Shown: positions 17,484 to 52,305 of the stretch, one piece after another
How the letters are laid out: each line of letters starts with the position of its first letter
Numbering within the stretch: position 1 is the first letter of the stretch
Assembly (NCBI GenBank): GCA_965660445.1
Contig: CBFIAK010000001.1
Location: 256,001-320,000 of the forward strand
From: Patescibacteria group bacterium
GTDB lineage: Bacteria; Patescibacteriota; Gracilibacteria; UBA4473
Direction of reading: 5' to 3'
DNA length: 64,000 nt
The notes under the pieces: model-generated
The model's database searches: none
Told to the model about the DNA's origin: nothing
What the model saw: the letters and a program-made list of their open reading frames with translations, nothing else
Program-made: the position numbers and the translations under genes

Positions 17484-17853
17484 GTCTCCATTTTAGAATC
17501 TCCATTAGAATCAGGAATCTAGAATCTTGGTAAAATCGCAGGAATCGCAGTGAATCAGAGATTCAGAATTATGAATCATGAATTAAGGGGAAGCACAAGA
17601 ACTACATGGAATCCTGAATCCAGAATCTTGAATCTAGAATAAATCGCAGGAATCGAAAGTCTTTGCAAAGCCTTGTGATTGTTCCTTATTTCTCAATCTG
17701 AATCTCAATCTTAATTCTTATAAAATGGAGACCGGTCTCGAGTTTTTGGCTTTATTATGAGTTTTTTTATTTTTTTTGAGTTGTTGTGTAATAATAGAAT
17801 CTGGAATCCGGATTCAAGATTCAAGATTCCTACTTCCTACTTCCTACTTCATC
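17484..17853. repeat. Mosaic intergenic repeat, copy A
   Basis: GAATCNN/GAATTAT heptamer runs, AATCGCAGG nonamers, GCAAAGCCTTGTGAT, palindrome GAGACCGGTCTC at 17728-17739; modules shared with copies B-D. Confidence 0.9.
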
Positions 17854-19158
17854 TTACCTTGCAAATCGTGGTATTGTTTTTAAGGAGTTTGATTTTTCTT
17901 CATCTATTTCTTTTAAAAGTTTCAAGAATGTCGCATAGTTTTTTATCACAGATCGTACATATTCGTCATTATAATACCGAAACCCCGCACTGCTATACGC
18001 CGATAGAACTTCTTTTAATAATGGAGTTCTTTTTTTAATGTGTCGTAGTTGTTGTATCAATGAGTCGATGAACTTTCCCGTACGAATAATGCTTTCCACC
18101 GGATTAAAAGGATTGATGCGACTTTCTTGACTCGCATTATAAAAATATCGAGAAGTTCCCTGCGCGAGTCCTGCGGCATACGTACTTGAAAGTGCCAGTG
18201 GATTAAATCGTGATTCATGATAAAAAATCATAAAAAATATTTCTGGGTTTAAATTATAATATTCTGCTATTGCGAGAACTAAATCATAATTGTTTTCAAT
18301 CATATGTGTTTCAATAAATGCTCGAATTGGTATGCCATCAATAAATCGATCAGGTGAAATATTCTCTAGAATAAAGGGAGTAAAAAGAGTCTCTTTTACG
18401 ATAGAACGAATATTCTCTTTTTGTTCTTTTGCGGTAAGAATTTTTGAATCAATATCAAACCGAGGAATAGCGTGTCCTTTTCGAATATGTAAAACATCTT
18501 CAAGTGGTTTCATGTTTATACCTTTTCGGGTCTTTATACGACTAAAAAAAGTATCATCACCAGCTATTTCTGTATACATCTTTCGTGTGATCTCTACACG
18601 CTCTTGTGTTAAGAGATTATCATAAAAAAGTGGTGTTATTTCAGAAGATAAGTAGTTTTGACGTAAATCAAGAATGCGTTCTTCAAGCATATCGTAATAT
18701 GTTTTTCCTTTTTCGTATCGTATAGGAATCTCTAAATTCAGTTGCATTTTATCCGTTCTTTTTCCTGCTTGTAAAGTCTGTCTTGTTATCTTGTCAAAGG
18801 TATAAAGCCGAACAATACGTTGTAATGATTCAAGACACTCATATTCAAAAATATCATCATTGGTCTCTAAATTTTTATGACGTTCAAATACCTTATCAAT
18901 CTCTTCTAAAAGAAGATCATAGTACGTTTTATTATCAATAAAAATACATGATTCTTTTAAACTTGGAAACTTTTTTTGTGCCGTGAGCCTCATATTTTCT
19001 TCAATCAATAACCTTTTTTTATACAATGGTGGTATATCGATTTGAAGTGAAACCATTTCTGATTTTGACTGTGATAATACATCCTCTGAATCAAAAAAGA
19101 TCTCATTTTTTAGTTCTGAATGTGCGTCAAAAGAATTCATTTTCATTATATTATACAA
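17854..19158 (-). CDS. Protein with C-terminal lytic transglycosylase (SLT) domain
   Basis: IFYHESRFNPLALS..AAGLAQ, NPFNPVESI..GKFI, LSAY motifs. Confidence 0.75.
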   Translation of the reverse strand: MYNIMKMNSFDAHSELKNEIFFDSEDVLSQSKSEMVSLQIDIPPLYKKRLLIEENMRLTAQKKFPSLKESCIFIDNKTYYDLLLEEIDKVFERHKNLETNDDIFEYECLESLQRIVRLYTFDKITRQTLQAGKRTDKMQLNLEIPIRYEKGKTYYDMLEERILDLRQNYLSSEITPLFYDNLLTQERVEITRKMYTEIAGDDTFFSRIKTRKGINMKPLEDVLHIRKGHAIPRFDIDSKILTAKEQKENIRSIVKETLFTPFILENISPDRFIDGIPIRAFIETHMIENNYDLVLAIAEYYNLNPEIFFMIFYHESRFNPLALSSTYAAGLAQGTSRYFYNASQESRINPFNPVESIIRTGKFIDSLIQQLRHIKKRTPLLKEVLSAYSSAGFRYYNDEYVRSVIKNYATFLKLLKEIDEEKSNSLKTIPRFAR

Positions 19159-19220
19159 TAAATATCAAAAGTGAGCAATAAATATTTGTTATTTATTTTT
19201 TATATGATATTTTAGTGCTA

Positions 19221-20231
19221 ATGAAAAATGGGAAATATTTAGAATCTTTCGTTGAACAAGAAGAATCTCCTGGTTTTCTAGTGGATCAACAAAAATTGAA
19301 TAGGCAAAAAAAAGATCAGCGAAAATTGTCGCTTCTTCAACAAAAATTAGAAAACGATGAAAATTTAAAACGAATCGATATTCGTGATTTTAAAGGAATT
19401 CATAGCCAAAAAGTTCAACAAGAAGATGAACGAGAAATTCGTCATTTAGAATCCGTTTTTAAAAATAATGATGAAGAAAATAAAATCCCTTTAGGGGTTC
19501 GTTTATCAGATTTACTCGAAACAATACTGCTCTACCATATTCAATATAGTCAGTGGCTTGGGCCAAATGTTGATATTCAACGTTCTTCTGTGTACGATGA
19601 TTATAAAAATGGAATCGATTGTATTGTCTCTTTCTCATCAAAAGATCCTACCGAGAAAAAAATATTATTAGGATTAGATATTACATCTGGCTCCTACTCA
19701 ACACTGAAAAAAAAAGTACAACGAGCGTGTAACGAAATTAAAGATGGCAAACTTGGATATATTAAATATTTTCAAATGCCTTATGGAAATTCATCCTTTC
19801 AAGGAAAGGATTATTATATTCCGCGGTTTGTGATTGGTGTGCAACGTTCTCATGTATGGGAATTGGTCCATGAATTATTTGAAATTGTTTTTGCTGATGA
19901 GTTACATCTTTCAGAAATAGAAAAATATACAAAGATTCAGAAAATAGAAAAAAATCCACTTTCTCTTCTCTTGCTTGAAGAACTTATGATGCAACTACAA
20001 GCGTATATTGATTATGCAACATATCAGAACGTATCCAGTGAGATTATAGATCAATATAAGGCTTTGTATCCACTGCTTGAATCACAATATCATCGAAAAA
20101 GATCCACGACCCAAGCTCCTCCTCGAGATGGAGTTGTGGAATGTTTAGGAGAAATATGCCAAGAAAAAAGTGGACTCGATGTTGTCGCTTATTTTAAGGA
20201 ACGTATTCAAAGAATAACAACCGAAAAATAA
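19221..20231 (+). CDS. Hypothetical protein, possible PD-(D/E)XK-like fold
   Basis: Long ORF; SSVYDDYKNGIDCIV...LGLDIT and PRFVIG segments; fold is inferred only. Confidence 0.6.
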   Translation: MKNGKYLESFVEQEESPGFLVDQQKLNRQKKDQRKLSLLQQKLENDENLKRIDIRDFKGIHSQKVQQEDEREIRHLESVFKNNDEENKIPLGVRLSDLLETILLYHIQYSQWLGPNVDIQRSSVYDDYKNGIDCIVSFSSKDPTEKKILLGLDITSGSYSTLKKKVQRACNEIKDGKLGYIKYFQMPYGNSSFQGKDYYIPRFVIGVQRSHVWELVHELFEIVFADELHLSEIEKYTKIQKIEKNPLSLLLLEELMMQLQAYIDYATYQNVSSEIIDQYKALYPLLESQYHRKRSTTQAPPRDGVVECLGEICQEKSGLDVVAYFKERIQRITTEK

Positions 20232-20234
20232 AAA

Positions 20235-20309
20235 TGGTGGTCTCGCCAAGAGTCGAACTTGGATCACTGGTTCCGCAAACCAGTATTCTATCCATTGAAC
20301 TACGAGACC
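20235..20309 (-). tRNA. tRNA-Arg(GCG)
   Basis: GGTCTCG acceptor stem, anticodon arm CTGGT-TTGCGGA-ACCAG, GTTCGA T-loop, encoded CCA. Confidence 0.95.
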
Positions 20310-20386
20310 GTCGTCAGAGATTTTTCCATATATTGCATATGTTTCTTTCAGAACCATATTTCATATATTACAAAACCTCTTCCTCT

Positions 20387-20470
20387 CGCTCATAATGGGG
20401 TCTAAGATTGACGAAGACAGAGGTGTATCTCTGCAAAGGAAAAGAATCTTAAACCCTTTCATTATTCGCG
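20387..20470 (-). other. Long rod-like hairpin with a central bubble upstream of tRNA-Arg(GCG)
   Basis: Nested helices ATAATG/CATTAT, GGGTTTAAGATT/AATCTTAGACCC, CAGAG/CTCTG; TATAAT at 20481-20486 (-). Confidence 0.5.
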
Positions 20471-20528
20471 TTTTTTTTCGATTATACAGATTGTCGGGAA
20501 ATATCAAGAACAAGAAGAACGAGTTTTT

Positions 20529-21698
20529 TTATTCTTCTAATTGAACTCGTCCCCAATTACGTTTTCCTGCTTTAATGACTTTTGGAGTGTTTGAGATCAA
20601 AACCAAGAGTTGAGGATTCTCGATTTTTTCTCCATCAATACTCACCCCTCCGCCAGTTACCAGTCGTCGGGCTTCTGAATTCGAAGCAGTAAACCCACAT
20701 ACTTGTGTTAAGAGATCTAAAATCCCTATTTGATTTTCTGTTGTTACAAAAAGTGGCATTGTGTCGGGAGTTTCTTTTTTTACAAACTTCGTAATGAAAT
20801 CTTGTTCTGCTCCATCTGCTTCTTCTTGAGAATGATAAAATGCAATAATATTTTTTGCGAGTCTCGCTTTTGCATCACGAGGATTTTCTGTTATCCACTG
20901 CTGTACCTGCTGTAATGGTTCATCAGTGCAAAGCTCAAAGTAGTTGAAAAGCAATGTGTCAGGAATAGACATGATCTTCCCAAACATCTCCTGAGGTTCG
21001 TCATCAAGATAAATAGTGTTTCCCCAACTCGTCGACATTTTTCGTCCATCAGTTCCTTCTAAAATGTTGAGTGTTATAACATTTTGTGGTTCTTGATCAA
21101 ACGACTTTTGGAGCGTTCTTCCCGCAAGTACATTAAATAACTGGTCACTCCCCCCTATCTCAATATCAGATTGAATAGCCACTGAGTCATAACCCTGCAT
21201 AAGAGGATACAAAAACTCATGCAGTGAAATTCTTTTTCCCGCCTTATGTCGTTTCGAGAAATTGTCTCGATCAAGCATTTCAGATACCGAGAAGTTTTGT
21301 GCTAACCGAGAAATATCATAGAAATCAAGTTTCGAAAGCCAACTTGAGTTATAGTGAATTTCGCATTTTTCAATATCAAGAATCTTTCCTAAATAAGCGG
21401 TATAATTTCTCATGTTTTCTTGCACTTGTTCTCGACTCAGCATAGGTCGTTCAGTGTCTTTATCACTTGCGTCTCCAACAATTCCAGTAAAATCACCAAT
21501 AATCAACACAATTGTATGACCGAGTGATTGAAACTCTCGCAGTTTTCGCAAAGGAACAGCTCGTCCGATGTGCAACCGTGACCCCGTAGGATCTATTCCA
21601 AATTTAATACGCAAAGGTTTTTTTCGCTGAAGCTTTGCTTCACAGTCTTCTTTTACTAAAACGGTGTGTACCCCACGGGTTAATAACTCATCATTCAT
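20529..21698 (-). CDS. tyrS: Tyrosyl-tRNA synthetase
   Basis: KFGIDPT..LHIG, YPLMQGYDS, GGSDQ.FN, KMSTS, C-terminal S4-like domain. Confidence 0.97.
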   Translation of the reverse strand: MNDELLTRGVHTVLVKEDCEAKLQRKKPLRIKFGIDPTGSRLHIGRAVPLRKLREFQSLGHTIVLIIGDFTGIVGDASDKDTERPMLSREQVQENMRNYTAYLGKILDIEKCEIHYNSSWLSKLDFYDISRLAQNFSVSEMLDRDNFSKRHKAGKRISLHEFLYPLMQGYDSVAIQSDIEIGGSDQLFNVLAGRTLQKSFDQEPQNVITLNILEGTDGRKMSTSWGNTIYLDDEPQEMFGKIMSIPDTLLFNYFELCTDEPLQQVQQWITENPRDAKARLAKNIIAFYHSQEEADGAEQDFITKFVKKETPDTMPLFVTTENQIGILDLLTQVCGFTASNSEARRLVTGGGVSIDGEKIENPQLLVLISNTPKVIKAGKRNWGRVQLEE

Positions 21699-21809
21699 GT
21701 ATGTGATTTCGTTTACTCATTACAATACAGCTGTTATCATACAAGTAATACGAAGAACGACAAGATTTTTTTGTATACAAAATACTATTCTTTCTCTTTT
21801 TCTCTTGCG

Positions 21810-23021
21810 ATGAAACTGATTCTACAAAACTTTCATGATGTTAATTTTCAAAATATTCGGCAAGAAATTTGGTTTTGGTTTGGATTTGGGGTGTTTTTGT
21901 ATGGAATCGGTCGATTTTTAGACTCATCTTTATTCTTCTGGTTTGATGAAATATTACGAACCCCTTTTCTCGATGATTTTTCTGTCTTTGTGACCGAGAA
22001 ATTAATTTGGGTTCTCTTGGCATTATTTGCTTTTGTGACTGGTTATCGGGTCTGGAAAAATCCTGACCATCATACAAAATTAGTTCCAGCGCTATTCTCG
22101 GTTATTCTTTCAGGAATTATCGCATTTGTCGCAAAATCATTATTTCATGTCCCGCGTCCATTCTTGCAAATGGATTTAATACCTTTAATTGATGCTCCTT
22201 CTTTTAGTTTCCCTTCCGCTCATACAGCAGTAGCATTTGCCTTGCTTATTCCTTTTTTTCGGATTGATAAAATTATTGGATCTTTGTGGCTCCTGTTTGC
22301 TATTTTAGTAGGATTTGCACGTGTGTATCAAAATGTACATTTTCCATCAGATATTGCTGGGGGTATCTTTATAGGTGGTATCGTGGGAAGCTTTTTTTCT
22401 AATAATAACGTTAAAAAAATGATTCTTGTGCTTTGGAATGAACTTGAATTTCGTCGTCAAACATTCCATTTTTTCTCTGGATTCTGCGTAGTCTTTGCTC
22501 ATTGGACTGGTTTTTTTCCTTTGCGTGTCATTGCTTTGTGTCTTTTGGGAGGGCTTGCACTATCGTGGTATTCTATTCATAACAAAATTCCAGTTATTTC
22601 AAATTTGTTAACTCTTTTTGATCGTCCTCGTGATAGAAATTTCCCTGGGAAAGGAGCCTATTATTTTCTCTTAGGGGTCTTTCTTGTATTTATCTTGTTT
22701 CCGAAAGAAGATATTCCCATTGCTTATGCATCGATTCTTATCCTTTCAGTGGGGGATTCTTTAAATCATCTGTTTGATAAAAGACCAGAAGGAAAAATAA
22801 AACTATCGTGGAATCGAAGAAAAAATCTTATTGGACTTCTTATTGGTATTATAGGAGGGACTATTGCCGCTCAGTTTTTTGTGCCTTTTTTTCCTGCATT
22901 ACTCGCTTCAACATTTGCTTTACTTATAGAATCTGTGCCTATACGGTTTGGTAAGTTTTATATTGATGATAATATCTTAGTGCCCATTGTCGCTGGGTTT
23001 GTATTGTGGGTGTTTGTGTAG
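21810..23021 (+). CDS. PAP2 phosphatase / dolichol(phytol) kinase-family fusion membrane protein
   Basis: K......RP, SFPSAH, ARVYQNVHFPSD (PAP2), followed by EFRRQTFH, LSVGDS, K..IG, IDDNILVP (Sec59/CTP-dependent kinase). Confidence 0.8.
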   Translation: MKLILQNFHDVNFQNIRQEIWFWFGFGVFLYGIGRFLDSSLFFWFDEILRTPFLDDFSVFVTEKLIWVLLALFAFVTGYRVWKNPDHHTKLVPALFSVILSGIIAFVAKSLFHVPRPFLQMDLIPLIDAPSFSFPSAHTAVAFALLIPFFRIDKIIGSLWLLFAILVGFARVYQNVHFPSDIAGGIFIGGIVGSFFSNNNVKKMILVLWNELEFRRQTFHFFSGFCVVFAHWTGFFPLRVIALCLLGGLALSWYSIHNKIPVISNLLTLFDRPRDRNFPGKGAYYFLLGVFLVFILFPKEDIPIAYASILILSVGDSLNHLFDKRPEGKIKLSWNRRKNLIGLLIGIIGGTIAAQFFVPFFPALLASTFALLIESVPIRFGKFYIDDNILVPIVAGFVLWVFV

Positions 23022-23029
23022 TAGTGAAA

Positions 23030-23488
23030 ATGAGAATCTGGAATCTTAATGAGAATCTAGAATCCTGAATCCAGAATCTTGAATAAATCACAGGAAGTGC
23101 AGTGAATTCTTCGAATTCAGAATTATGAATGAGGAATTATGAATTAAGGAGAAGCGCAGGAGGGCTAAAGCGCTAAAATGGAGACCGGTCTCCAAGTTTT
23201 GGCTTCACTGTGGTATTTTTTGTTTTTTTTGAGTTATTGTATAGTAACAGTGAAGTGAAAAAGACTTTTCACTTCAGAATTATGAATCATGAATGAGGAA
23301 TTATGGGGAAGCGCAGGAGCTACATGGAATCTGGAATCTAGAACAAATCGCAGGAATCACAAAAAAAATCACAAGGTGGTGCAAAGCCTTGTGATTCTCC
23401 CTAGATTCCAGATTCCAGATTCTAGATTCGAGCGCCCTAGCGCTCTTGCGCTCTTGCGCTTCCCCTAACTCATTATTCTTACTTCATT
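23030..23488. repeat. Mosaic intergenic repeat, copy B
   Basis: Heptamer arrays, TGAATTCTTCGAATTCA hairpin, GAGACCGGTCTC at 23181-23192, ATCACAAGGTGGTGCAAAGCCTTGTGAT at 23368-23395, GCGCTCTT repeats. Confidence 0.92.
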
Positions 23489-24781
23489 CTATAGCTGTCC
23501 TCGGAGTTCTAATGCGTTTACAATACGTTCTATTCCGAGAATAAAAGCTGATTGTCGATATGAAGTTTTATAGTTTTCATGAATGAACAGTAAATCACGA
23601 AATGCATTATCCATTACTTTTTTGAGTTTCTCATTTACGAAATCTTCTTCCCAAATATCACCTGACCGATTTTGAACCCATTCGAAATACGAAACAGTAA
23701 CACCTCCTGCATTGGCAAGAATATCAGGAATAACCGTAATACCCTTTTTCTCAAGTATATCATCTGCTTGAGGTGTAATAGGTCCATTTGCGAGTTCTAA
23801 AATAGTTCGAGCTTTTATCTTATCAGCATTTTCTTCATGAATAACTCCATCAAGTGCCGCAAGAACAAGAACATCAACATCGAGTTGTAGCAATTCTTCA
23901 TTAGAAACAATGCGTACCTTTTCTCGACTCATGTGATCAATATCACATGTATCACCTTCACAAAAATTCCCTCTCAATGAACCTCCTTTTTGCTTGTATT
24001 CATGAATTTTTGGAACATCAAATGCATTATTTTCTGTTACCACTCCTCCAGAACTGTCAGAAACAGCTACAACTTTGTAGCCATGCTTATGAGCAATGTC
24101 AGCAAAATAAGATCCCGCATTTCCAAATCCTTGAATGGCAATAGTTGTATCAACCGGTAGTTTTTTGAGTGTTTCTAAGTACTGAGAAAGAATAAAAAAT
24201 CCACCTTGGCTTGTTGCATAACTCCGACCAAGAGAACCCCCTAGCTCAAGAGGTTTTCCAGTTATAACTCCTGGTGATTTGTGACCAATTACCTTCTCGT
24301 GTTCATCAAGCATCCATGACATAATTTGGGGCGTTGTGTAAACATCGGGAGCTGGAATGTCTTTGTGAACACCAAATATGCCCTGTTCGGTTCCTATTCG
24401 AAAATAAGCTCGACTCATCCGTTCAAGTTCTTTTGGAGAAAGTGTTTTTGGGTTTATGGTGACTCCTCCTTTTCCACCTCCCAAAGGAATATTTACAACC
24501 GCACATTTCAAAGACATAAGTGAAGCAAGTGATTTTACTTCGTTCAAATCCGCTTCATGATGAAAACGAATACCTCCTTTATAAGGTCCACGTGCAGAAT
24601 TATGCTGTACACGATATCCATCAACCGTATGCTTTTTTCCTGAATCAAGCTCGAATTCTACTTGGAATTCATGAATTGATTCCGGCGTTTCAATGCGATG
24701 AAGTGCTTCGGTTGAAAGTTTGATTGTTTTGGCAGCTTTTCGAACATTGGTAAGAAAATGCTCATATGGTTTTTTTGTCAT
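23489..24781 (-). CDS. gdhA: Glu/Leu/Phe/Val family glutamate dehydrogenase
   Basis: RVQHNSARGPYKGGIRF, GGGKGG, DIPAPDV, TGKP..LGGS, QGFGNAG, ANAGGVTVSYFEWVQN. Confidence 0.95.
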   Translation of the reverse strand: MTKKPYEHFLTNVRKAAKTIKLSTEALHRIETPESIHEFQVEFELDSGKKHTVDGYRVQHNSARGPYKGGIRFHHEADLNEVKSLASLMSLKCAVVNIPLGGGKGGVTINPKTLSPKELERMSRAYFRIGTEQGIFGVHKDIPAPDVYTTPQIMSWMLDEHEKVIGHKSPGVITGKPLELGGSLGRSYATSQGGFFILSQYLETLKKLPVDTTIAIQGFGNAGSYFADIAHKHGYKVVAVSDSSGGVVTENNAFDVPKIHEYKQKGGSLRGNFCEGDTCDIDHMSREKVRIVSNEELLQLDVDVLVLAALDGVIHEENADKIKARTILELANGPITPQADDILEKKGITVIPDILANAGGVTVSYFEWVQNRSGDIWEEDFVNEKLKKVMDNAFRDLLFIHENYKTSYRQSAFILGIERIVNALELRGQL

Positions 24782-24882
24782 CAGAAAAAGAAGATAAAAA
24801 ATAAGAATGTATCTGCATTGTGACGAATATTAAAAAAAAATCAAATATACCCCACCCCCTATATAAAAAAAATGTTTCGTCT

Positions 24883-25704
24883 TCATAGCCATGCTTTTTT
24901 CCAACTCCGCCACCAACGAATAGATGGAATAAAAAAAGAAAATGGAGTGCTTATAAAAATGAGAAAGGCGAGTATTATTTTTTTCTGTTTTCGAGGTAGG
25001 AGGAGAACTTCTGGATGAAGCTTTTCGAAAATAGCCGCATTTGATCGTGCATTCCGAGTATTGTTCCATACGTTTTGAGGTGTTTGTTTGTGGTCATGGT
25101 ATACCGTCCAAATTGGATCAAAGAAAAGCGAAAATCCTTTTTGATACAGTCTGTATCCAAACTCTGTATCTTCAAACCCCCATCCCTGAAACGCAAGAGA
25201 AAAGCGATCAGTTCCAATAATAGACCGTTTGAGCGATATATTAGATGTGTAAAAATGACGCCATGATGGAGTATTGTGTCGTAAAAAATGAAACTGAAAC
25301 TGCGCATGATTGAGTAGCCATTGATGAAAAGGATCATTGGCAAGTTTTTTATCCCATGCGACAAATCCGAGCAGTGCTTTTGTTTCTTGTGGATGAGCTG
25401 TGTGAAACGCAATCATTCTCTGTAACCATTTTTCATCGGGATAAGTATCGTCTCCTAAAAATGCAATAATATCTCCACGAGCATTATCAAGCCCTATATT
25501 TCGAGCTCCAGCGGAATAGGTTTTTGTTTTGGTTGTAAAAATTCGAACCCATGAAGGAATGTTCTGGAGCGTAACAGCCACGTTGTCAAAAATAACCAAA
25601 CATTCAATCGAGTGTCTTGAGAAGTCAGAACATGACTCTATCGATTCAAGCACTTTCGGGAGAGTTTCTCGTCCGATAGTTGGAATGATGATTGATATTT
25701 TCAT
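24883..25704 (-). CDS. Glycosyltransferase family 2
   Basis: ISIIIPT, AGARN.G, IAFLGDD, GWGFEDTEFGYRL. Confidence 0.9.
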   Translation of the reverse strand: MKISIIIPTIGRETLPKVLESIESCSDFSRHSIECLVIFDNVAVTLQNIPSWVRIFTTKTKTYSAGARNIGLDNARGDIIAFLGDDTYPDEKWLQRMIAFHTAHPQETKALLGFVAWDKKLANDPFHQWLLNHAQFQFHFLRHNTPSWRHFYTSNISLKRSIIGTDRFSLAFQGWGFEDTEFGYRLYQKGFSLFFDPIWTVYHDHKQTPQNVWNNTRNARSNAAIFEKLHPEVLLLPRKQKKIILAFLIFISTPFSFFIPSIRWWRSWKKAWL

Positions 25705-25780
25705 AAATAAAAAATGGACAATGACAGAAACAATTTACAAAAAAAAGAAGACTGAGTACAATAAAAAAGAAGAAAACATT

Positions 25781-26350
25781 ATGAAAAACATATTTTTACA
25801 ACCGCGATCATTTTTTCTTTTGCTTTGTATTCTTTTTCTCTGGGGATGCAAGGACGATACCCAACCAGAAACAACTCCAGTTGTTGTGGAATCAGATACG
25901 CTTTCTCAATACGAAACGCCAGTGCTTGATATTGCGAGACCAACACTCTATACACAACTGCAAGAAGAATCAGGAATTGAAAGTTTTTTATCTATGATTC
26001 AAAAAGCAAAATTAGAACGATGGCTTAATTCGGCAGATGCAATGACAATATTTGTCCCAACAGATAAAGCTATTACACCACTGCTACAAGATAGAAACTT
26101 TATGAATCGTGTGATTTCTGACCCAAGTTTTCTTGAGCGATTTGTGAAACACCATGTTATTCCAGTCGCAATTGATCCGATAGTGCTTCAAAAGAATGGC
26201 ATGATGTATAGTGCAAGTGAAGCCGAAATATCAGTGCTTGCGCAAGGTTCAAAATCGTTTCTGAATGGGGTAATAGAAATTCCCAAAGAGCATATTAAAA
26301 CAGGGAATGGATATATCTATTTTATTGAGGCCCCTTTGCTCATTGAGTAA
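25781..26350 (+). CDS. Fasciclin-domain lipoprotein
   Basis: Lipobox LWGC; TIFVPTDKA, HVI and NGYIYFI fasciclin motifs. Confidence 0.8.
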   Translation: MKNIFLQPRSFFLLLCILFLWGCKDDTQPETTPVVVESDTLSQYETPVLDIARPTLYTQLQEESGIESFLSMIQKAKLERWLNSADAMTIFVPTDKAITPLLQDRNFMNRVISDPSFLERFVKHHVIPVAIDPIVLQKNGMMYSASEAEISVLAQGSKSFLNGVIEIPKEHIKTGNGYIYFIEAPLLIE

Positions 26351-27345
26351 GCCTTTTTGAGTGCGTAAATATTTAAGAACAAAACACAAGTTGTAATTCC
26401 AATAAGTGTTATTATTTTTGTGAAACCTTCTAAAAAAAGAACACTTCCTCCAAAAAAACTAGAAACAATAAGAAATAATACCGTTGTTTTTTGTGGACCA
26501 AGAAGGCGTGCAAAATTGTGATGCATATGGAATAAGTCCCCAGAGAATGGGGATTTTTTGTCGATAGAAATGCGTCGAATGACAATAAATATACTATCGA
26601 TAATAGGAAGGCAGAGTACGAATAAAGTAACGGCTATTTTTGTTCCTGCAAATAATGAAAAAACAGCTAAAAGGAATCCGAGTATCTGTGACCCTGTATC
26701 CCCTAATATTATTTTTCCTCGAAGAAAAAAAAGAAAAGCCCCGAGGGTAATGCCTGCGAGATAAAAAGTGATAAGAAGAAAACTAGGAAGATTCGTTTCC
26801 CATTGTAATTCTGGGCGAATAAGTCCGAAAATACCAAGCGTTGTAAACCCAATAGAAGATATCCCAACAGAAAGTCCAGGAAGTCCATCAAACCAATTGA
26901 GTGCGTTTTGAATCATAATAACCCACACCACAGTCGCTCCTAATGCTATGATCGGCCATTGCATGATATGAAGACTGTCTCCGTCGGAAAATGGGTTTCC
27001 AATAAACTGAATACGAACACCAACCCAAAAAAGACCAATCGCCAAAGCAATGTGTATGCAGAGTCGAAAAAGTGCTGGAAGTGGGGTTCGGTCATCCCAA
27101 AAACTGATCCCCCCTAAAACTATTAAAAAAGGAATAAGCCACCAAAAAATGGGGAAAATAATACAAAAAAGAAGGGATAATACAAGTAAAATAATACCTC
27201 CTGGGTATGGAATTGGCGGTCTTGAAAGATTGTATCGATGAGGAAAATCAAGAAGTCCTATTTTTGGAAAAAACCATAAGCTCCCCCAAACACAAAGAAA
27301 TGAAACCAGAACACCGATACAAAAAAGAGTGAGAATCATGTGCAT
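26317..27345 (-). CDS. MraY/WecA/TagO family polyprenyl-phosphate GlcNAc-1-P transferase (GT4)
   Basis: PYPGG, WDD, NALNWFDGLPGL, ILGDTGS, LPIIDS, HMHH; start set at 27345. Confidence 0.88.
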   Translation of the reverse strand: MHMILTLFCIGVLVSFLCVWGSLWFFPKIGLLDFPHRYNLSRPPIPYPGGIILLVLSLLFCIIFPIFWWLIPFLIVLGGISFWDDRTPLPALFRLCIHIALAIGLFWVGVRIQFIGNPFSDGDSLHIMQWPIIALGATVVWVIMIQNALNWFDGLPGLSVGISSIGFTTLGIFGLIRPELQWETNLPSFLLITFYLAGITLGAFLFFLRGKIILGDTGSQILGFLLAVFSLFAGTKIAVTLFVLCLPIIDSIFIVIRRISIDKKSPFSGDLFHMHHNFARLLGPQKTTVLFLIVSSFFGGSVLFLEGFTKIITLIGITTCVLFLNIYALKKAYSMSKGASIK

Positions 27346-27459
27346 ATGATACCGAGTCGATACGAAAAAAAAAGAAAAAAATAAAAGACATGGTATTATT
27401 TTTTGACAAAGTGATGAAATACCATTATAAAACGACCGATTTATTTTTGAATTTCTACA

Positions 27460-27612
27460 ATGCTTGCAAAACGAAGATGGAGAAAACGGCTTCGAACACA
27501 TGGGTTTCGCGCTCGAATGCAAACGCCTTCTGGGCGGCGTATATTAGCAAATCGTCGGCGAAAAGGAAGAAAACTTATTAGCGTAGCAGGAAAAGAGAAG
27601 TCGTGGTCTTAA
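27460..27612 (+). CDS. rpmH: 50S ribosomal protein L34 (not in ORF track)
   Basis: Manual translation [50 protein letters not shown]; upstream of rnpA. Confidence 0.95.
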
Positions 27613-27637
27613 TAGACTTCAATGATTCTTGTGTTTT

Positions 27638-27976
27638 ATGATTCCTCGAGATAAGCGGTTTACGGTTCGAATGTTTCAAAAGGTGTTTGAAAAATCCCAT
27701 CGATGGGGTATTGATAAACACCTTTTTCTTATTGGTAAAACGTCATCACAACCTCGATTTGCCGTTGTGGTGGGTAAAAAAATTTCCAAACAAGCGGTGG
27801 TGAGAAATCGATTGCGACGTCAAATCTATGAAATGATTCGTCGAGATTTTTTAGACAGAAACAAAAAATGGAATATCATATTCTTGTATCGAGGTGGTGA
27901 TGTTATAGATGATATAACATCCATAAAAGCTCCATTTGATGCTTTATTTCAGAGACTTGAACGTTCTCATTCTTAA
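27638..27976 (+). CDS. rnpA: Ribonuclease P protein component
   Basis: RFAVVVGKKISKQAVVRNRLRR (RNR motif); rpmH-rnpA-yidC synteny. Confidence 0.93.
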   Translation: MIPRDKRFTVRMFQKVFEKSHRWGIDKHLFLIGKTSSQPRFAVVVGKKISKQAVVRNRLRRQIYEMIRRDFLDRNKKWNIIFLYRGGDVIDDITSIKAPFDALFQRLERSHS

Positions 27977-27990
27977 TCTTTTTTTTTATT

Positions 27991-29307
27991 ATGACCCAGG
28001 TATCACATCCGAAAACCGGTAACAAACAACCATCTTTTTTTGGTAATTTCCTTCGTTGGTTTCTTGTGTTTTATATTCTTTTCTTTGCATTGCAGTATTT
28101 TTTTGGTGATCCGAAAGAAAGTGTGAGTGATTCAAATCTATCAGCAGATATAGTTATTCAGCCAGAACGAGATGAGTATGTAATGGGAAATGTTGTCCGT
28201 TTTTTTATTGAAAATACGAGTGATAAAACGTATGTATTCAACACTCCATGTGGTGCAGAAAATGAAAATGTAAAGTTCTCATTCGTCACTACCCATAGTG
28301 AAGCTATAGACTATACAGATATTTCGCGAAGTATGAGAGATCAGTGTCGCGAGTCTGAAATTGGAGATGTAACTCTTAATCCTCAACAATCAATTGTATT
28401 CCAAACAAAAGAATACAATGCAAATTTGTTTTCAGAAGCAGGTACGTATCAATTAGAAATGACATGGGAAGACGAAGAAGGAAATCCTCTCATTGTGCAG
28501 TCTGAAGTAGGTATTGAAAAAGCAGGTTGGTTTCGAACCTTGTTTCGAAGTATTGTCACTCGTCCATTGTTTAATATTTTAGTGTTTCTTACAGAATATG
28601 TTCCTGGAAATTCTTATGGAGTGGCTATTATTATCTTAACGATTCTTGTTCGATTGATTCTTTTTGTACCGAACCAGAAAGCTATGAAATCACAACGAGA
28701 ATTACAGAAAATTCAACCAGAGTTACTCAGAATAAAAGAACAGCATAAAGGAAATCAGCAAATGATTGCCCTTAAAACTATGGAATTGTATAAAAGCCAT
28801 AATATAAATCCATTGGGGGGGCTTTTGCCAATTTTGTTGCAAATGCCTTTTTTGCTGGGAATATTTTATTTATTACAAGACGGACTCTCTCCGCATTTAA
28901 GATACCTGCTTTATAGTTTTTATAATAATGCTGATTTTTCTATTGGAGACGTCTTCTTTGTTGGATTAAATTTAGGGGGAGGGTATGAAGTCAACGCTCT
29001 TGCACAAGTGATACTTGCGCTTGTTGTTGCGGGGGTGCAATTTGTCGCTGTTCGATTATCAATGGCTCGTGCACAAACAAAAGATAAACCAGTAGAAAAA
29101 AAGAATCCAGAAGATCCGATGTATATGATGCAGAATGCTGGAAAAATTATGATGTGGGTTATGCCATTTTTAGTGGCTTTGTTTAGCATCTCTTTGCCAG
29201 CCGGAGTTGGGCTTTACTGGTGTGTATCAACGCTTTTTGGTATTGGACAACAGTGGTTTGTGAATAAGCAACTTGAAAAACCACAAATTAGAAAAAAGAC
29301 TTCTTAG
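27991..29307 (+). CDS. yidC: Membrane protein insertase YidC
   Basis: YGVAIIILTILVRLIL, IQP, NPLGGLLPILLQMP, PAGVGLYW, QQ. Confidence 0.94.
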   Translation: MTQVSHPKTGNKQPSFFGNFLRWFLVFYILFFALQYFFGDPKESVSDSNLSADIVIQPERDEYVMGNVVRFFIENTSDKTYVFNTPCGAENENVKFSFVTTHSEAIDYTDISRSMRDQCRESEIGDVTLNPQQSIVFQTKEYNANLFSEAGTYQLEMTWEDEEGNPLIVQSEVGIEKAGWFRTLFRSIVTRPLFNILVFLTEYVPGNSYGVAIIILTILVRLILFVPNQKAMKSQRELQKIQPELLRIKEQHKGNQQMIALKTMELYKSHNINPLGGLLPILLQMPFLLGIFYLLQDGLSPHLRYLLYSFYNNADFSIGDVFFVGLNLGGGYEVNALAQVILALVVAGVQFVAVRLSMARAQTKDKPVEKKNPEDPMYMMQNAGKIMMWVMPFLVALFSISLPAGVGLYWCVSTLFGIGQQWFVNKQLEKPQIRKKTS

Positions 29308-29411
29308 AAATTGTTGTGGTCACTTGTAGGGGAAAGCATTTCTTTTTTTTAGTTTTCTTTTGGACTCAAAAAAAGAACATGGTATTATATTTGTGATTTT
29401 TGTATTTTCTT

Positions 29412-30020
29412 ATGATGGAACAGCGATCAAGACGAAAAAGTGCGATATTGCAAAGCGATACTCTTCGTCGTTTAATGCAGGGGTTTAACGTGCTATCACC
29501 TGAGAAAAAAGGAGTAGTTTTGTCACATATAGGAATATTGGTGTTTTCCTTTTTTCCATGGATGCACATAACTTCAAATGTTTCAGAATATGCGATTATC
29601 TTGTTTTCTCGTGGAAATGTATCGCTCTTTTTGATACTGACTATCATTTTCTTGTCTGCATTGGTTTTGTTTTTATTTATTGATTCTTTCCTCGGACTGA
29701 AAACGATAAAACTCCCTTTTTCTACAGATTATGTCTATGCTTTTGTAGGAATGCAGCAGTTTATTATTGCATTTTTAGCCCTTTCGGCATTGGTTATTTG
29801 GGGTAAACAAATTGGAATTGTAAGACTTTCTTTTGGGTTCTTTTTTACGATGATTTGTATTATTGCGGCTATTGTAGCAACATTTTTAGATATCAGAGTG
29901 CAAAAACGAAAAAAGACGCAAGAATTTTTCCGATCTCCTGCGTCGTCACCCGCTCCTGATACAACTCAAGCATCTTCAGAACCAAAACAAACACGTATTA
30001 ACCAAGTTGATAAGATTTAA
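29412..30020 (+). CDS. Hypothetical membrane protein (about 4 TM helices)
   Basis: Hydrophobic segments, FFPW motif; co-directional with yidC. Confidence 0.7.
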   Translation: MMEQRSRRKSAILQSDTLRRLMQGFNVLSPEKKGVVLSHIGILVFSFFPWMHITSNVSEYAIILFSRGNVSLFLILTIIFLSALVLFLFIDSFLGLKTIKLPFSTDYVYAFVGMQQFIIAFLALSALVIWGKQIGIVRLSFGFFFTMICIIAAIVATFLDIRVQKRKKTQEFFRSPASSPAPDTTQASSEPKQTRINQVDKI

Positions 30021-30028
30021 CTGAGAGA

Positions 30029-30454: not shown

Positions 30455-30484
30455 TATATTTCTATTTTTAACCCTTTATACAGT

Positions 30485-44809: not shown

Positions 44810-44815
44810 AGATAT

Positions 44816-50879: not shown

Positions 50880-50880
50880 A

Positions 50881-50909
50881 TTGACATTACCGGTATATTA
50901 TTTTATAAT
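50881..50909 (+). promoter_or_regulatory. Consensus sigma70 promoter for nrnA-like gene
   Basis: TTGACA-17 nt-TATAAT. Confidence 0.8.
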
Positions 50910-50943
50910 ATAATATGTTAGTGAATTTAATAGACGTTTTGGT

Positions 50944-51936
50944 ATGAAATCTTTAGTTTCTAGTGCGGTTTCATTTGATGAAAATACTCTCAAATCTTTT
51001 CAGGCATATATGCAAGAAAAGCCGAGTACATTGATTTTAATTCATGCGAATCCAGATGGTGATACATTTGGTGCTGGGTGGGCGTTGTATCATGCTCTTT
51101 TATCGCAAGAATTTGATGTTGATATGGCTTGTAAGGACGATATTCCAGAATCATTTCATTTTATAGGGAATACATCGTTTATAAAACATGATTTTAATCC
51201 GAACGATTATAAAACATTTATTTTTGTGGATTGTGGAGACAAACGAATGACTCAGTTTCACAACCTCTATCCAGAAATATTGTCAGAGAATGTCCATAAA
51301 ATAAATCTTGATCATCATCCTTCAAATGATCTGTTTGGAGATATAAATGGTGTGTTTACAAAGGCTGCCTCTACAACAGAAATTGTGTATCATTTACTAC
51401 TCGATTTGCATATACATATAACTCCATCAATGGCAACCGCATTGCTTTTAGGATTATATACAGATACAGGGGCTTTTATGCATCAAAATACAACGCCACA
51501 TGTGTATCAAATTGCAGGTGATTTGCTTGAAAAAGGAGCGAATATGGCTCGTATATCAAAACAAGTGTTTCGTACATACGATCTTCCAACACTCAAACTA
51601 TGGGGAAGAATCTTGCAAAATGTTTCCATAACTCCAGAAGGAGCCGCTATTGTTGGTATTTCTCGTGAAGAATACGAATCTCTTGGACTCAAACGAGATG
51701 ATATTTCTGGTGTTATTGATTATATCAATGCTCTTGATGAAGTTGAATACGTCGTGATGCTTTCTGAAGATGAAAAAGGAAATGTCAAAGGATCACTACG
51801 AACGAGAAAAGACCACGTAGACCTGAAAGCCTTAGCAGAACAGTTCGGAGGAGGTGGGCATGTGAGAGCCTCTGGGTTTACAATTCCAAAAGGAAGACTT
51901 CAAAAAGAAGTACGATGGAAAATTATACAAGAATAG
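50944..51936 (+). CDS. nrnA: DHH/DHHA1 family oligoribonuclease/pAp phosphatase (NrnA-like)
   Basis: HANPDGD, FVDC, NLDHH, TDTG.F, KGSLR, GGGGH..ASG. Confidence 0.9.
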   Translation: MKSLVSSAVSFDENTLKSFQAYMQEKPSTLILIHANPDGDTFGAGWALYHALLSQEFDVDMACKDDIPESFHFIGNTSFIKHDFNPNDYKTFIFVDCGDKRMTQFHNLYPEILSENVHKINLDHHPSNDLFGDINGVFTKAASTTEIVYHLLLDLHIHITPSMATALLLGLYTDTGAFMHQNTTPHVYQIAGDLLEKGANMARISKQVFRTYDLPTLKLWGRILQNVSITPEGAAIVGISREEYESLGLKRDDISGVIDYINALDEVEYVVMLSEDEKGNVKGSLRTRKDHVDLKALAEQFGGGGHVRASGFTIPKGRLQKEVRWKIIQE

Positions 51937-51943
51937 TCTCAAT

Positions 51944-51982
51944 AAAAAGAAGAGGGAAAATTTGACCCTCTTCTTTTTTTTT
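51944..51982 (+). terminator. Intrinsic terminator
   Basis: AAGAAGAGGG...CCCTCTTCTT followed by a T-run. Confidence 0.75.
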
Positions 51983-52038
51983 GTAGAATCGACTCGCTCT
52001 TTCTATTAAAGATTGAACAGAATGTTTTTTTCCAAAAA

Positions 52039-52123
52039 GCCGGGGTGGCGGAATTGGTAGACGCGCACGACTCAAAATCGTGTTCCGTAAGGAGTGAGAG
52101 TTCGATTCTCTCCCTCGGCACCA
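52039..52123 (+). tRNA. tRNA-Leu(CAA)
   Basis: GCCGGGG acceptor stem, CACGA-CTCAAAA-TCGTG anticodon arm, long variable arm, CCA. Confidence 0.97.
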
Positions 52124-52305
52124 GAAGCACAGTGAATTCTTCGAATTCAGAATAATGAATTATGAATTAAGAATTAAGGGGAAGCGCAAGAGCTACATGG
52201 AATCTGGAATCCGGAATCTTGAATCTAGAATAAATCGCAGAAATCATAAGGTGGTGCAAAGCCTTGTGATTTTTCCATAATTCATTATTCCTAATTCTAT
52301 TTTTA
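52124..52305. repeat. Mosaic intergenic repeat, copy D (short)
   Basis: TGAATTCTTCGAATTCA, GAATTAT/GAATCNN arrays, GGGAAGCGCAAGAGCTACATGG, ATCATAAGGTGGTGCAAAGCCTTGTGAT at 52243-52270. Confidence 0.9.

Follow-up and report, generated by a model that had tools for sequence, protein, structure and literature searches.

S23p, the 23S-rRNA-intervening-sequence protein (PF05635), is an Avd-like four-helix bundle. In the Coxiella intervening sequence (IVS), as described for that system, two to three tandem GACAGAT heptamers lie ahead of the S23p open reading frame, and the 28-bp stem has been shown experimentally to be cleaved internally by RNase III (PMC4990558). Arrays of the heptamer GGGAATC in Xanthomonas are reported to include 70–75 inverted pairs and to be placed a mean of 28 nt past the upstream open reading frame (PMC4692102). 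Both are published parallels to the heptamer-array stems analysed here. REPs are described as 20–40-nt units present in more than 100 copies (PMC2817692, PMC3733652).

Distributed over the window, the 64,000-nt stretch of DNA analysed, are four copies of one lineage-specific composite fold-back repeat family (Table 1). Direct reading bore out all four elements and every motif that an earlier sequence-only reading had named in them. Heptamer arrays of GAATCNN and GAATTAT flip to NNGATTC and ATAATTC; GCGCTCTT octamers correspond to linker GGGGAAGCGCAAGAGC read on the opposite strand; and nonamers AATC(G/A)CA(G/A)G and TCAATC hexamers are present, as are the hairpins ATCACAAGG-N10-CCTTGTGAT and TGAATTC-TTC-GAATTCA. 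A repeat finder returned direct families D1–D9 and inverted pairs I1–I5 (75–107 nt, 80–94% identity). The flanking genes named earlier were recovered as SLT, PAP2, Glu/Leu/Phe/Val dehydrogenase (gdhA), RecA and MscS (Pfam) and as 5S rRNA and tRNA (Rfam), except for a TPR label given to the 282-aa protein beside element 3, which matches no Pfam family at E ≤ 1e-4.

Table 1. Repeat elements of the window and their modules (window coordinates)
Feature	Position	Strand	Description	Repeat-finder family or source
Element 1	17484-17853	+	Long form, T1/T2 palindromes collapsed; spans 5S rRNA gene to SLT-domain gene stop codon (17854-17856)	
Element 1, first GAATCNN array (B)	17494-17529	+		D1; direct reading
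Element 1, GAATTAT-type array (A) and linker L	17566-17608	+	22-nt linker L (GGGGAAGCACAAGAACTACATG)	
Element 1, second B array	17609-17680	+	With AATCGCAGG nonamers and central hairpin C with degenerate left arm	D3, D5
Element 1, core	17681-17796	+	S module (TCAATC hexamers), one hybrid GAGACCGGTCTC palindrome (core 17728-17739), T-rich tail U	D7-D9
Element 1, distal end	17797-17850	+	Small GAATC/GATTC palindrome, then CTACTTC x3 array (K) touching SLT stop codon	direct reading
Element 2	23030-23488	+	Left part internally deleted, right fold-back complete; PAP2 stop (23019-23021) to gdhA stop (23489-23491)	
Element 2, hybrid T palindrome and U tail	23174-23249	+	Palindrome core 23182-23193	D7-D9
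Element 2, complete fold-back	23250-23488	+	Order H, A, L, B, N, C, b, l, a	
Element 3	31547-32022	-	Full long form, reversed; recA stop (31544-31546) to 282-aa gene stop (32023-32025)	I1-I5
Element 3, hairpin C, copy 1	31613-31642	.		
Element 3, T2	31750-31787	.	38-nt palindrome AAGCCAAAA..GAGACCGGTCTC..TTTTGGCTT (core 31763-31774)	
Element 3, V spacer	31788-31848	-	T2 to T1; in full long forms, missing from elements 1 and 2	
Element 3, T1	31849-31872	.	Palindrome AAAATGGAGACCGGTCTCCATTT, terminator-like	
Element 3, hairpin C, copy 2	31923-31952	.		
Element 4	52124-52305	+	Short single fold-back, order H, A, L, B, N, C, a; tRNA-Leu end to mscS stop (52306-52308)	

The basic unit is a large imperfect palindrome. 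Its arm is composed of a GAATTAT-type array, a 22-nt linker, a GAATCNN array and GAATC-headed nonamers, and is closed by a hairpin with a 10-bp stem and 10-nt loop (C), after which inverted copies of the arrays follow. The long forms (450–500 nt) have two of these units, oriented alike, on either side of a non-coding core of ~200 nt, which carries two GAGACCGGTCTC palindromes with A- and T-tracts on either side; elements 1 and 2 lack ~93 nt between these palindromes. Module strings were derived for 42 sites, and the ten long forms aligned, chosen because they carry S/T/U modules, are all collinear, with variation confined to orientation, internal deletions and array length. The earlier description of the copies as module-shuffled is overstated; element 3 has the shared order, reversed in orientation. 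Nor was there support for more than one mobilising protein, as had been suggested; the nested periodicities belong to one collinear element. T modules are found at only 14 of the 42 sites, and at most sites the outermost recognisable modules are arrays. The internal deletions fall between internal repeats; slippage or recombination between these may account for both the deletions and the changes in array length.

Iterative blastn recovered 46 segments of the family (12,037 nt, 1.2% of the 991-kb genome) at ~42 dispersed sites, with copies 70–94% identical, supporting the earlier proposal of a dispersed, non-coding, multi-copy family favouring gene 3′ ends. The palindrome GAGACCGGTCTC occurs 29 times in the 991 kb, where by our own arithmetic less than one occurrence of any 12-mer is expected, and the motif GAATCNNGAATC occurs 207 times. 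A search of 30 relatives turned up no member of the family. Over the 42 sites, 117 open stop-to-stop frames of at least 40 aa, spread over every frame, are all low-complexity repeat translations with no conserved open reading frame among them, in agreement with the earlier view that no credible protein is encoded.

The repeat sites favour gene 3′ ends. Among 34 occupied gaps, 14 are convergent, 18 tandem and 2 divergent, against a background of 162, 584 and 161, gap classes resting on crude gene calls (longest open reading frames of at least 70 aa). Convergent gaps are over-represented among those occupied (odds ratio 3.4, p = 0.001), although the exclusively convergent placement claimed earlier holds for the four window copies and not genome-wide. 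A tRNA or 5S gene adjoins 9 of the 34 occupied gaps versus 72 of 907 overall (odds ratio 4.6), and in seven of these nine, by our reading, the repeat sits downstream of that RNA gene. Median coverage of a gap by its element is 76%, often from stop codon to stop codon. The convergent mscS/tRNA-Leu arrangement that holds element 4 is shared by two relatives of the same family, and the comparison shows only a plain gap in them, lacking the element, of ~100 nt in one (G016) and of ~60 nt with a plain hairpin and T-run in the other (G017). Neither an occupied/empty polymorphism nor a target-site duplication was found.

The right unit of element 2 forms one predicted hairpin of -107.5 kcal/mol (z = -11.3; none of 200 shuffles as stable), and element 4 one of -46.7 kcal/mol (z = -3.1). 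For the 43 segments of at least 100 nt the median is -0.279 kcal/mol/nt, compared with -0.186 for six mononucleotide shuffles of each and -0.174 for 207 repeat-free gaps of 100–500 nt. Hairpin C shows no covariation (544 Watson–Crick cells versus 546 in shuffles). The fold-back stems themselves lack a U-tract, and the sole terminator-like site flagged in element 3 is T1 (0.3 expected). In tandem gaps the core is co-directional with the genes at four sites and anti-directional at one to three, a variability that does not fit a terminator or promoter working strictly in one direction. RNase III is encoded in this genome.

Directly 3′ of tRNA-Pro is the single PF05635 gene of the genome (C1:488920-489231, E = 4.5e-24), with ATATTACTnGATTCTAGAATCGAG, which carries GATTC/GAATC heptamers, on either side of it. 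The earlier suggestion to look for a four-helix-bundle gene bordered by the motifs of the elements thus gave a positive result, and the flank of this gene is the only non-trivial GAATC-type period-7 array that TRF detects outside the repeat family. Beyond the heptamer core the flanks have little in common with the 42 sites (blastn-short matches of 11–24 nt, the best being tRNA-Val trailers), and tblastn with 11 S23p proteins revealed no S23p remnant in the repeats, with nothing below E = 0.37. In a class sample of 201 genomes, period-7 GAAT arrays occur in 84 and PF05635 in 115; the gene is present in 72 of the 84 genomes with arrays and in 43 of the 117 without (odds ratio 10.3, by hand cross-tabulation of genomes that are not independent). 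By family the association has a Spearman rho of 0.86 (13 families with at least six genomes). Relatedness inflates the class-level association. There are exceptions: in G071, 50 array matches occur in the absence of PF05635, and 43 genomes have PF05635 but no GAAT-type arrays, though in many S23p cassettes the heptamers are of other kinds.

Heptamer arrays specific to the locus can be seen on either side of S23p genes. The best 21-nt inverted match between 150-nt flanks is at least 18 at 17 of 25 S23p loci, whereas 60 mismatched-locus controls average 14.5; one control pair reaches 20/21 because related cassettes have array types in common. In G131 and G099 a PF05635 gene is enclosed by two inverted GAAT arrays at a distance of at most ~50 nt, and relatives with S23p cassettes build the same architecture from unrelated heptamers. 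The elements look more like gene-less relatives of a small gene cassette than like classical REP/BIME elements. We put at about even odds the proposal that the family branched off, gene-less and elaborated, from the heptamer-array stem cassettes whose loop, in this bacterial class, normally contains a small S23p gene.

The likeliest role of the elements would be that of a 3′-end hairpin, terminator or RNase III substrate. As 3′ trailers they would be transcribed along with mRNAs, tRNAs and 5S rRNA; the stems, long and double-stranded, would serve as 3′-end barriers and, by analogy with the Coxiella IVS stem, as RNase III substrates, with the T1/T2 palindromes as putative bidirectional intrinsic terminators. 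Stems and palindromes together would take the place of the plain terminator hairpins present in relatives at sites of this kind. Two routes were considered for the spread to ~42 sites, gene conversion between existing gene-end heptamer arrays and an S23p-dependent process. Taken whole, as a fold-back family derived from S23p cassettes and acting at 3′ ends, this account has in our judgement roughly an even chance of being right.

The earlier assignment to REP/BIME elements, moved in trans by a RAYT (an HUH Y1 transposase), draws on the palindromic, intergenic and convergent-enriched character of the elements and on a modular make-up that recalls BIMEs. It is nevertheless very improbable: units here are 7-nt arrays and 28–38-nt palindromes at ~42 sites, unlike REPs, and Y1_Tnp (PF01797) and the TnpB-type domain gave no match. 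The Y1_Tnp search, which matches 6 of 14 control genomes, found no RAYT/IS200-like gene in this genome, rated 100% complete, so the spreading agent is not a RAYT. A classical MITE, deleted from an insertion sequence whose DDE or other transposase has since disappeared or is carried by an unassembled or extrachromosomal replicon, would fit the dispersal, the identities between copies, the inverted arms and the absence of the family from the relatives searched; four contig ends fall within repeats, so that part of the genome is unresolved. We consider it unlikely, as there was no genome-wide match to six transposase families (DDE_Tnp_1, rve, IS110, TnpB, Y1 and RT, the six searched), no transposase among 69 proteins from repeat-dense regions and small contigs, and neither the two tyrosine recombinases nor the four serine recombinases adjoin a repeat site. 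Moreover, element ends are not fixed but lie within arrays of variable length, and the two units of the long form are direct, not inverted, repeats.

Doubtful, yet a genuine contender, is an origin without mobility, in which arrays are born in place by replication slippage, while gene conversion carries modules from one locus to another and they persist because very short gaps benefit from stable hairpins and terminators. Polymerase slippage has been hypothesised to favour heptamers (PMC4692102). Throughout the class, gene ends carry heptamer arrays built on many different units, genera differ in the arrays that follow the same gene (G131 after recA, G199 and G004 after gdhA), and the outermost arrays, the deletions between internal repeats and the missing transposase all agree with such an origin. 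Slippage, however, leaves unexplained the ~200-nt non-repetitive core, linker L and hairpin C, which are 80–90% identical at sites hundreds of kilobases apart, as well as the class-wide pairing of arrays with S23p genes, and gene conversion requires a homologous array already at each target. GAATC/GATTC is also GANTC, the HinfI/CcrM site, and protein-binding or methylation arrays for DNA-level chromosome organisation or regulation could explain a conserved GAATC core followed by two variable bases, the 404 GANTC sites in 12 kb of repeats (~1 per 30 nt, versus 1 per 219 nt elsewhere) and a 7-bp period that would place every third site on one helix face. This is quite improbable, given that A-type (GAATTAT) and K-type (CTACTTC) arrays contain no GANTC and that relatives use unrelated heptamers; outside the repeats GANTC has an observed/expected ratio of 1.36, the highest of 16 such palindromes, and as it is not avoided nothing points to a cognate restriction system. 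Hardly credible is an assembly artefact, in which mosaics arise from mis-joined repeats, a concern raised by the contig ends within repeats and by short-word contigs of an independent assembler (one sequencing run, possibly the source sample), which break inside every element, none covering a whole one. These contigs tile most of elements 1 and 2 and pass from unique DNA into elements on both sides with no differences (for example, 17710-23210, 23379-31630 and 31977 onward); ten long copies in different unique contexts have one order, and sequencing depth is higher in repeat bins, as for true multi-copy DNA.

The four repeat elements of the window belong to a lineage-specific family of composite fold-back repeats, dispersed and collinear, that occupies the 3′ ends of genes and stable RNAs and is not accompanied by a RAYT (Y1 HUH transposase). 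The window corresponds to positions 256001–320000 of contig C1. The genome (991,330 bp in five contigs, C1–C5; 37% GC; completeness rating 100%) carries 46 family segments with a combined length of 12,037 nt (1.2% of the total), as found by iterative blastn seeded with elements 1–4 and run to convergence; merging of the segments leaves 42 sites. Family repeats lie at or adjoin four contig ends (the 3′ ends of C1 and of C2, and C4 at either end), so the true copy number should be somewhat higher. Linking the four elements to one another are the direct families D1–D9 and inverted pairs, 75–107 nt long and 80–94% identical (repeat finder). Every motif listed for these stretches by an earlier sequence-only reading is present in them on direct reading, and a genome-wide module search places the motifs far beyond the window, with GAGACCGGTCTC occurring 29 times and GAATCNNGAATC 207 times.

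Annotation of all 42 sites, with module seeds taken by coordinate from the window, resolves the long form set out in the table, and among the aligned sites carrying S, T or U modules, 10 of 10 are collinear. Replacing T1-V-T2 in elements 1 and 2 and in one further copy is a single hybrid palindrome, which is the product of a deletion between two copies of GAGACCGGTCTC. The elements had been read as module-shuffled; the copies do vary, but as those of the window fit one collinear order, the apparent shuffling comes down mostly to differences in array length and orientation and to internal deletions. The ends of the elements fall inside arrays of variable length, and of 118 period-7 repeats detected in the genome (TRF, low threshold), 73 lie within the 1.2% that the family occupies. 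Palindromes of the sequence GGAGACCGGTCTCC also occur at two places with A/T-tract flanks and without typical T1 or T2 flanks; one, outside the blastn repeat segments, could be a lone terminator of the same type, and the other lies inside a repeat segment and is hence not solitary.

Positions and composition of family elements, long-form modules and associated features (lower-case letters denote inverted module copies)
Feature	Position	Composition or remark
Element 1	window 17484–17853	Single hybrid palindrome in place of T1-V-T2
Element 2	window 23030–23488	Single hybrid palindrome in place of T1-V-T2; left part also without L-B-N-C-S
Element 3	window 31547–32022	Long-form order, reverse orientation
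Element 4	window 52124–52305	One short unit, H-A-L-B-N-C-a
Further copy	C1:246 kb	Single hybrid palindrome in place of T1-V-T2
Long form, start		Optional H (small hairpin), A (GAATTAT-type heptamers), L (GGGGAAGCGCAGGAGCTACATG)
Long form, next		B (GAATCNN heptamers)
Long form, after B		N (GAATCGCAG nonamers)
Long form, after N		Hairpin C (AATCACAAGG, 10-nt loop, CCTTGTGATT)
Long form, after C		S, then T1 (AAAATGGAGACCGGTCTCCATTTT)
Long form, after T1		V, ~65 nt
Long form, after V		T2 (AAGCCAAAACTTGGAGACCGGTCTCCAAGTTTTGGCTT), then U (T-rich tail)
Long form, end		Second B-N-C, then inverted arrays b, l, a
Longest sites	C1:802.7–803.7 kb; C2 end	~330-nt super-unit in tandem
GTPase ORF	C1:803.7–805.5 kb	606 aa; follows the repeats
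GGAGACCGGTCTCC palindrome	C1:210819	Outside blastn repeat segments
GGAGACCGGTCTCC palindrome	C1:176893	Inside repeat segment C1:176853–176988
RNase III gene	C2:117127–117504	
S23p gene	C1:488920–489231	Only PF05635 match in the genome, E = 4.5e-24
Surroundings of S23p gene	C1:488780–489400	GC-rich hairpin and GATTC/GAATC array between tRNA-Pro and S23p; terminator hairpin of the convergent gene then follows S23p
tRNA-Val duplication	C1:749300–749660	~170-nt tandem duplicate of terminator hairpin, GATTC/GAATC array, GC hairpin and tRNA-Val 3′ part
23S and 5S rRNA genes	window 14317–17467	No 16S within 14 kb upstream
Last gene of C1	C1:825181–828027	Type IV coupling protein (TrwB/VirD4-like); gene end at a repeat site
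C5	whole contig, 2,992 nt	T7-type terminase large subunit

The arms of a unit pair around hairpin C. In the right unit of element 2, the pairs A–a, L–l and B–b form a single nested hairpin with C at its tip (−107.5 kcal/mol, z = −11.3; 0 of 200 shuffles fold as well), and element 4 folds at −46.7 kcal/mol (z = −3.1). Over 43 family segments of at least 100 nt the median energy is −0.279 kcal/mol per nt, against −0.186 for their shuffles (six mononucleotide shuffles each) and −0.174 for 207 repeat-free gaps of 100–500 nt, the lowest of which reaches −0.336. Hairpin C has a near-invariant 10-bp stem and a variable loop; across its 43 occurrences in the genome no covariation was found (544 Watson–Crick cells versus 546 in shuffles), and among its mismatches in family copies, taken as a test of RNA-level selection, the excess of G·T over C·A (15 versus 7) is not significant. 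T2 has one compensatory change, from G–C to C–G, common to subfamilies, which is too little to weigh. T1 of element 3 is flagged as terminator-like and the genome encodes RNase III; the stems may act as 3′-end structures and RNase III substrates, with T1 and T2 as putative bidirectional terminators. Within the V spacer, TTTACG-16 nt-AATAAT, following T1, was considered as a candidate promoter for an RNA of ~100 nt ending at T2/U and was rejected, promoter-like sites being at chance level (2 against 2.4 expected). No avoidance of GANTC was found in the genome.

On gene calls that are crude (greedy longest ORFs of at least 70 aa, plus tRNA and rRNA genes), 37 segments fall into 34 gaps: 14 convergent (background 162), 18 tandem (background 584) and 2 divergent (background 161); the other nine segments are at contig ends or within short, doubtful ORFs. 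Convergent gaps are enriched for the family (odds ratio 3.4, p = 0.001) and divergent gaps tend toward depletion (odds ratio 0.28, p = 0.07). Of the 34 occupied gaps, 9 are next to a tRNA or 5S gene; for all 907 gaps the figure is 72 (odds ratio 4.6, p = 8e-4). In 7 of these 9, by our own reading of the gap list, the gap flanks the RNA gene at its 3′ end. Family elements cover a median of 76% of the gap that they occupy and often begin 0–16 nt from the flanking gene end, the four in the window spanning the distance from a stop codon or RNA end to a stop codon. The median gap between convergent or tandem genes is 34–37 nt, and the family is present in 32 of 161 gaps of at least 150 nt, about one fifth of long gaps. 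As for the genes flanking the window elements, Pfam agrees with the earlier labels SLT, PAP2, gdhA-type dehydrogenase, RecA and MscS and does not confirm TPR. The rRNA operon in the window appears to be split.

Comparison with relatives, drawn from a 201-genome sample of the class (G-numbers; L-numbers are loci in them), is informative at one of the junctions that the earlier reading had singled out. The convergent mscS/tRNA-Leu junction is kept in G016, with a gap of ~100 nt, and in G017, with a gap of ~60 nt holding an ordinary hairpin and T-run; the element is absent from both, and element 4 thus takes the place of a plain terminator. After recA the gap has a median of 74 nt in relatives (n = 21) versus 476 nt here, and after gdhA 123 nt (n = 11) versus 467 nt, but the neighbour pairs of this genome (recA/282-aa gene, gdhA/PAP2) are conserved in 0 of 22 recA and 0 of 11 gdhA loci examined, so that neither junction is a true empty-site comparison. 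Some relatives have different heptamer fold-backs of their own at these places, G131 after recA and G199 and G004 after gdhA. That of G131 (L090), within the 152 nt that follow the recA stop, is an AGGTANN-array fold-back whose centre, GGGAAGCCAAGAGCTACA, resembles linker L. In G013, the relative closest to this genome (RecA 83% identical), GAAT arrays and PF05635 are both absent.

The sequence-only reading had likened the elements to BIME/REP repeats, which are associated with RAYTs, and had proposed mobilisation in trans. In the portions of the literature that we draw on, the BIME/REP repeats of enterobacteria and pseudomonads are, like the family, mosaic modular palindromic intergenic repeats at 3′ ends and in convergent gaps, and termination and mRNA-stabilisation roles have been proposed for them, as here for the family. 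The BOX elements of Streptococcus pneumoniae are likewise modular palindromic intergenic repeats at 3′ ends and in convergent gaps with proposed termination and mRNA-stabilisation roles; no sequence relationship of the family to BIME/REP or BOX was found. RAYT genes are typically flanked by REPs, and the RAYT connection finds no support in this genome, where Y1_Tnp (PF01797) has 0 matches; the same search was positive in 6 of 14 control genomes. The genome also yields no match to DDE_Tnp_1, rve, a TnpB-type domain, DEDD_Tnp_IS110 or RVT_1, no transposase is present among 69 proteins encoded in the repeat-dense 785–828 kb stretch, at the contig ends and on the small contigs, and of its recombinases, two tyrosine and four serine, none adjoins a repeat site. 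Among the transposase families tested there is no parent insertion sequence with matching ends, by which a MITE would be recognised. REPs are defined, in the passages available to us, as imperfect palindromes of 20–40 nt, often in more than 100 copies (PMC2817692, PMC3733652); the units of the family are instead 7-nt arrays and 28–38-nt palindromes present 43 and 29 times, so it differs from BIME/REP in having heptamer arrays rather than REPs, a far lower copy number and no RAYT.

The full family was not found in 30 relatives from the family and class, whose matches are arrays of 24–38 nt only, nor in phage and plasmid collections, nor in Rfam at gathering thresholds, where element 3 gives sub-threshold matches only (long-hairpin miRNA precursors and a snoRNA, E = 0.26–0.78). 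Apparent hits to single modules were set aside: the T2 pattern has one match across the genomes of 185,579 species, at an unrelated MAG contig end; the hairpin-C pattern meets three metagenome loci of ~50% GC, with similarity limited to the pattern, as expected of chance; and linker L, allowing up to 2 mismatches, occurs once or twice each in 7 of 200 other genomes, a level that its reversed control roughly matches, as expected of chance. A search of sequencing runs listed a single holder of this DNA, kept as contigs and perhaps the source sample, and no RNA run. Since the weak matches in relatives are short heptamer arrays, the class sample was searched for GAAT at period 7 in four consecutive units. 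Such arrays occur in 84 of 201 genomes, some with tens to 210 matches, and a reversed control pattern shows that other heptamers are also abundant in the sample. In relatives the arrays lie immediately upstream of start codons or form inverted pairs. G177 has the 210 matches (for example at L035 and L044), with units GAATGTC, GAATGTG and GAATTTG; among the matches listed they are almost one-stranded per contig (mostly forward on its C1 and C4, reverse on C2 and C3), which hints at a link with the direction of replication or transcription.

Tandem heptamer repeats, first known among bacteria from the STRRs of cyanobacteria, are over-represented in many genomes. The GGGAATC arrays of Xanthomonas campestris and X. 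axonopodis, in the sections of Rehm et al. (2015, PMC4692102) used here, share with the family tandem 7-nt units with a GAATC core and variable remaining positions, an intergenic location near the 3′ end of the upstream ORF with few in divergent gaps, many inverted pairs able to form stem-loops, and fast turnover between relatives; their 70–75 inverted pairs lie a mean of 28 nt after the upstream ORF. By the features used to recognise the Xanthomonas type, the family has 7-nt units with a core in at least two copies, inverted pairs and intergenic 3′ placement. It departs from them in that GAATCNN, GAATTAT and CTACTTC lack a GGG run and so G-quadruplex potential, in that its arrays are embedded in a conserved composite (linker, hairpin C and two-palindrome core), and in its host, an uncultured lineage with a ~1-Mb genome of 37% GC. 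Those sections tie the Xanthomonas arrays to no gene (PMC4692102). The TAACTGA repeats of Beggiatoaceae (MacGregor 2015, PMC4679880) and the STRR heptanucleotides of heterocystous cyanobacteria such as Calothrix (cited in PMC4692102) are described, in the parts consulted, as abundant intergenic tandem heptamers of patchy phylogenetic spread, and TAACTGA repeats, like the arrays in relatives of the present genome, often stand just upstream of start codons (PMC4679880). As portrayed there, both are simple direct arrays, whereas in the family the arrays serve as the arms of long fold-backs, to which conserved modules without repeats are attached.

A four-helix-bundle gene flanked by the same motifs had also been suggested as something to look for, and one is indeed found: the single gene for S23p (PF05635), the 23S-rRNA-intervening-sequence (IVS) protein, sits between GATTC/GAATC heptamers. 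S23p is an Avd-like four-helix bundle, PF05635 being described, in the portion of the source we rely on, as similar to Avd of diversity-generating retroelements (PMC10053308); the sole match of the protein among solved structures, by sequence search, is 2GSC, XCC0516 of Xanthomonas campestris. Its gene comes immediately after tRNA-Pro, in the same orientation, and ATATTACTnGATTCTAGAATCGAG, containing B-type GATTC/GAATC heptamers, stands on both sides of it. A similar array follows tRNA-Val. At C1:749300–749660, a tandem duplication has left a partial tRNA copy beside the intact tRNA-Val gene.

Across the class, PF05635 is found in 115 of 201 genomes, in up to 17 copies per genome. It is present in 72 of the 84 genomes with GAAT arrays and in 43 of the 117 without them (odds ratio 10.3 by hand cross-tabulation, a value inflated by relatedness), and over the 13 families with at least six genomes the association has a Spearman rho of 0.86. 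At 25 S23p loci, comprising the 24 best-scoring in relatives and the one in this genome, the gene fits tightly between a stop codon on its upstream side and an ATG on its downstream side and lies between locus-specific heptamer arrays, usually inverted; in G131 and G099, GAAT arrays bracket it within ~50 nt. Matched flank to flank, the best 21-nt inverted match reaches at least 18 in 17 of the 25 loci, against a mean of 14.5 and a maximum of 20 in 60 mismatched-locus controls, a maximum that reflects arrays common to related cassettes. L065 (G089) departs from the usual inverted layout, S23p being flanked there by direct GTAACTN arrays.

In print we found heptamers linked with S23p only for the IVS of Coxiella burnetii, as an aside. 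As presented in the parts of Warrier et al. (2016, PMC4990558) consulted, that element forms a 28-bp stem within which RNase III cuts, carries two to three GACAGAT heptamers before the S23p ORF, their number depending on the strain, and is treated as a selfish element whose mobility is unknown. On this account the terminal inverted repeats of the IVS form a long heptamer-bearing stem, as do those of the family, and the S23p gene of the present genome, placed after tRNA-Pro, shares with the 23S rRNA IVS a stable-RNA transcript context. Unlike this IVS, however, the 42 sites lack an S23p ORF in the stem loop and have extra conserved modules, RNase III cutting of their stems is a prediction, and they lie after genes (one just after 5S rRNA) rather than inside 23S rRNA; helix 25/45 is not occupied, the 23S match being continuous over model positions 1–2925. 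Also counting against a link, the 42 sites have little in common with the S23p flanks beyond the heptamer core, and G071 has 50 array matches and no PF05635; no S23p remnant or similarity was found in the 42 sites. On balance, we consider it about an even call that the S23p heptamer-stem cassettes of the class are the source of the family or have a mechanism in common with it.

A wider proposal, which we regard as improbable, would unite the fold-backs and S23p in a single selfish system, widespread and so far unrecognised. In it, S23p would recognise or propagate hairpins with 7-nt-array arms, and the 42-site family would be a non-autonomous branch, maintained or mobilised in trans by the one S23p gene beside tRNA-Pro and co-opted as the lineage's 3′-end terminator and RNase III signal. 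If true, it would give the STRR, Xanthomonas GGGAATC and TAACTGA heptamer repeats a common origin. Should the association with S23p hold, a mechanism would be indicated for a whole class of bacterial repeats, and a role for a very common, Avd-related protein family of unknown function. The heptamers of this genome are in any case unusually organised: they make up the arms of a conserved composite hairpin, an element that takes up 1.2% of 1 Mb and stands in places where plain terminators are found in relatives. For the annotation of ultra-small bacterial genomes the family identifies most 'long' intergenic DNA.

The small contig C5, to judge from its terminase gene, may be a phage fragment, and the last gene of C1, for a coupling protein, runs up to a repeat site. 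By RecA, the nearest Atlas clusters of this genome are most frequent in Candidatus Saccharimonadota. In G101, G147, G154, G088, G045, G169 and G201, several in-frame TGA codons lie within otherwise full-length PF05635 matches, a pattern in the reading frames which has a bearing on the identity of the class and suggests that these members of it read TGA as sense.
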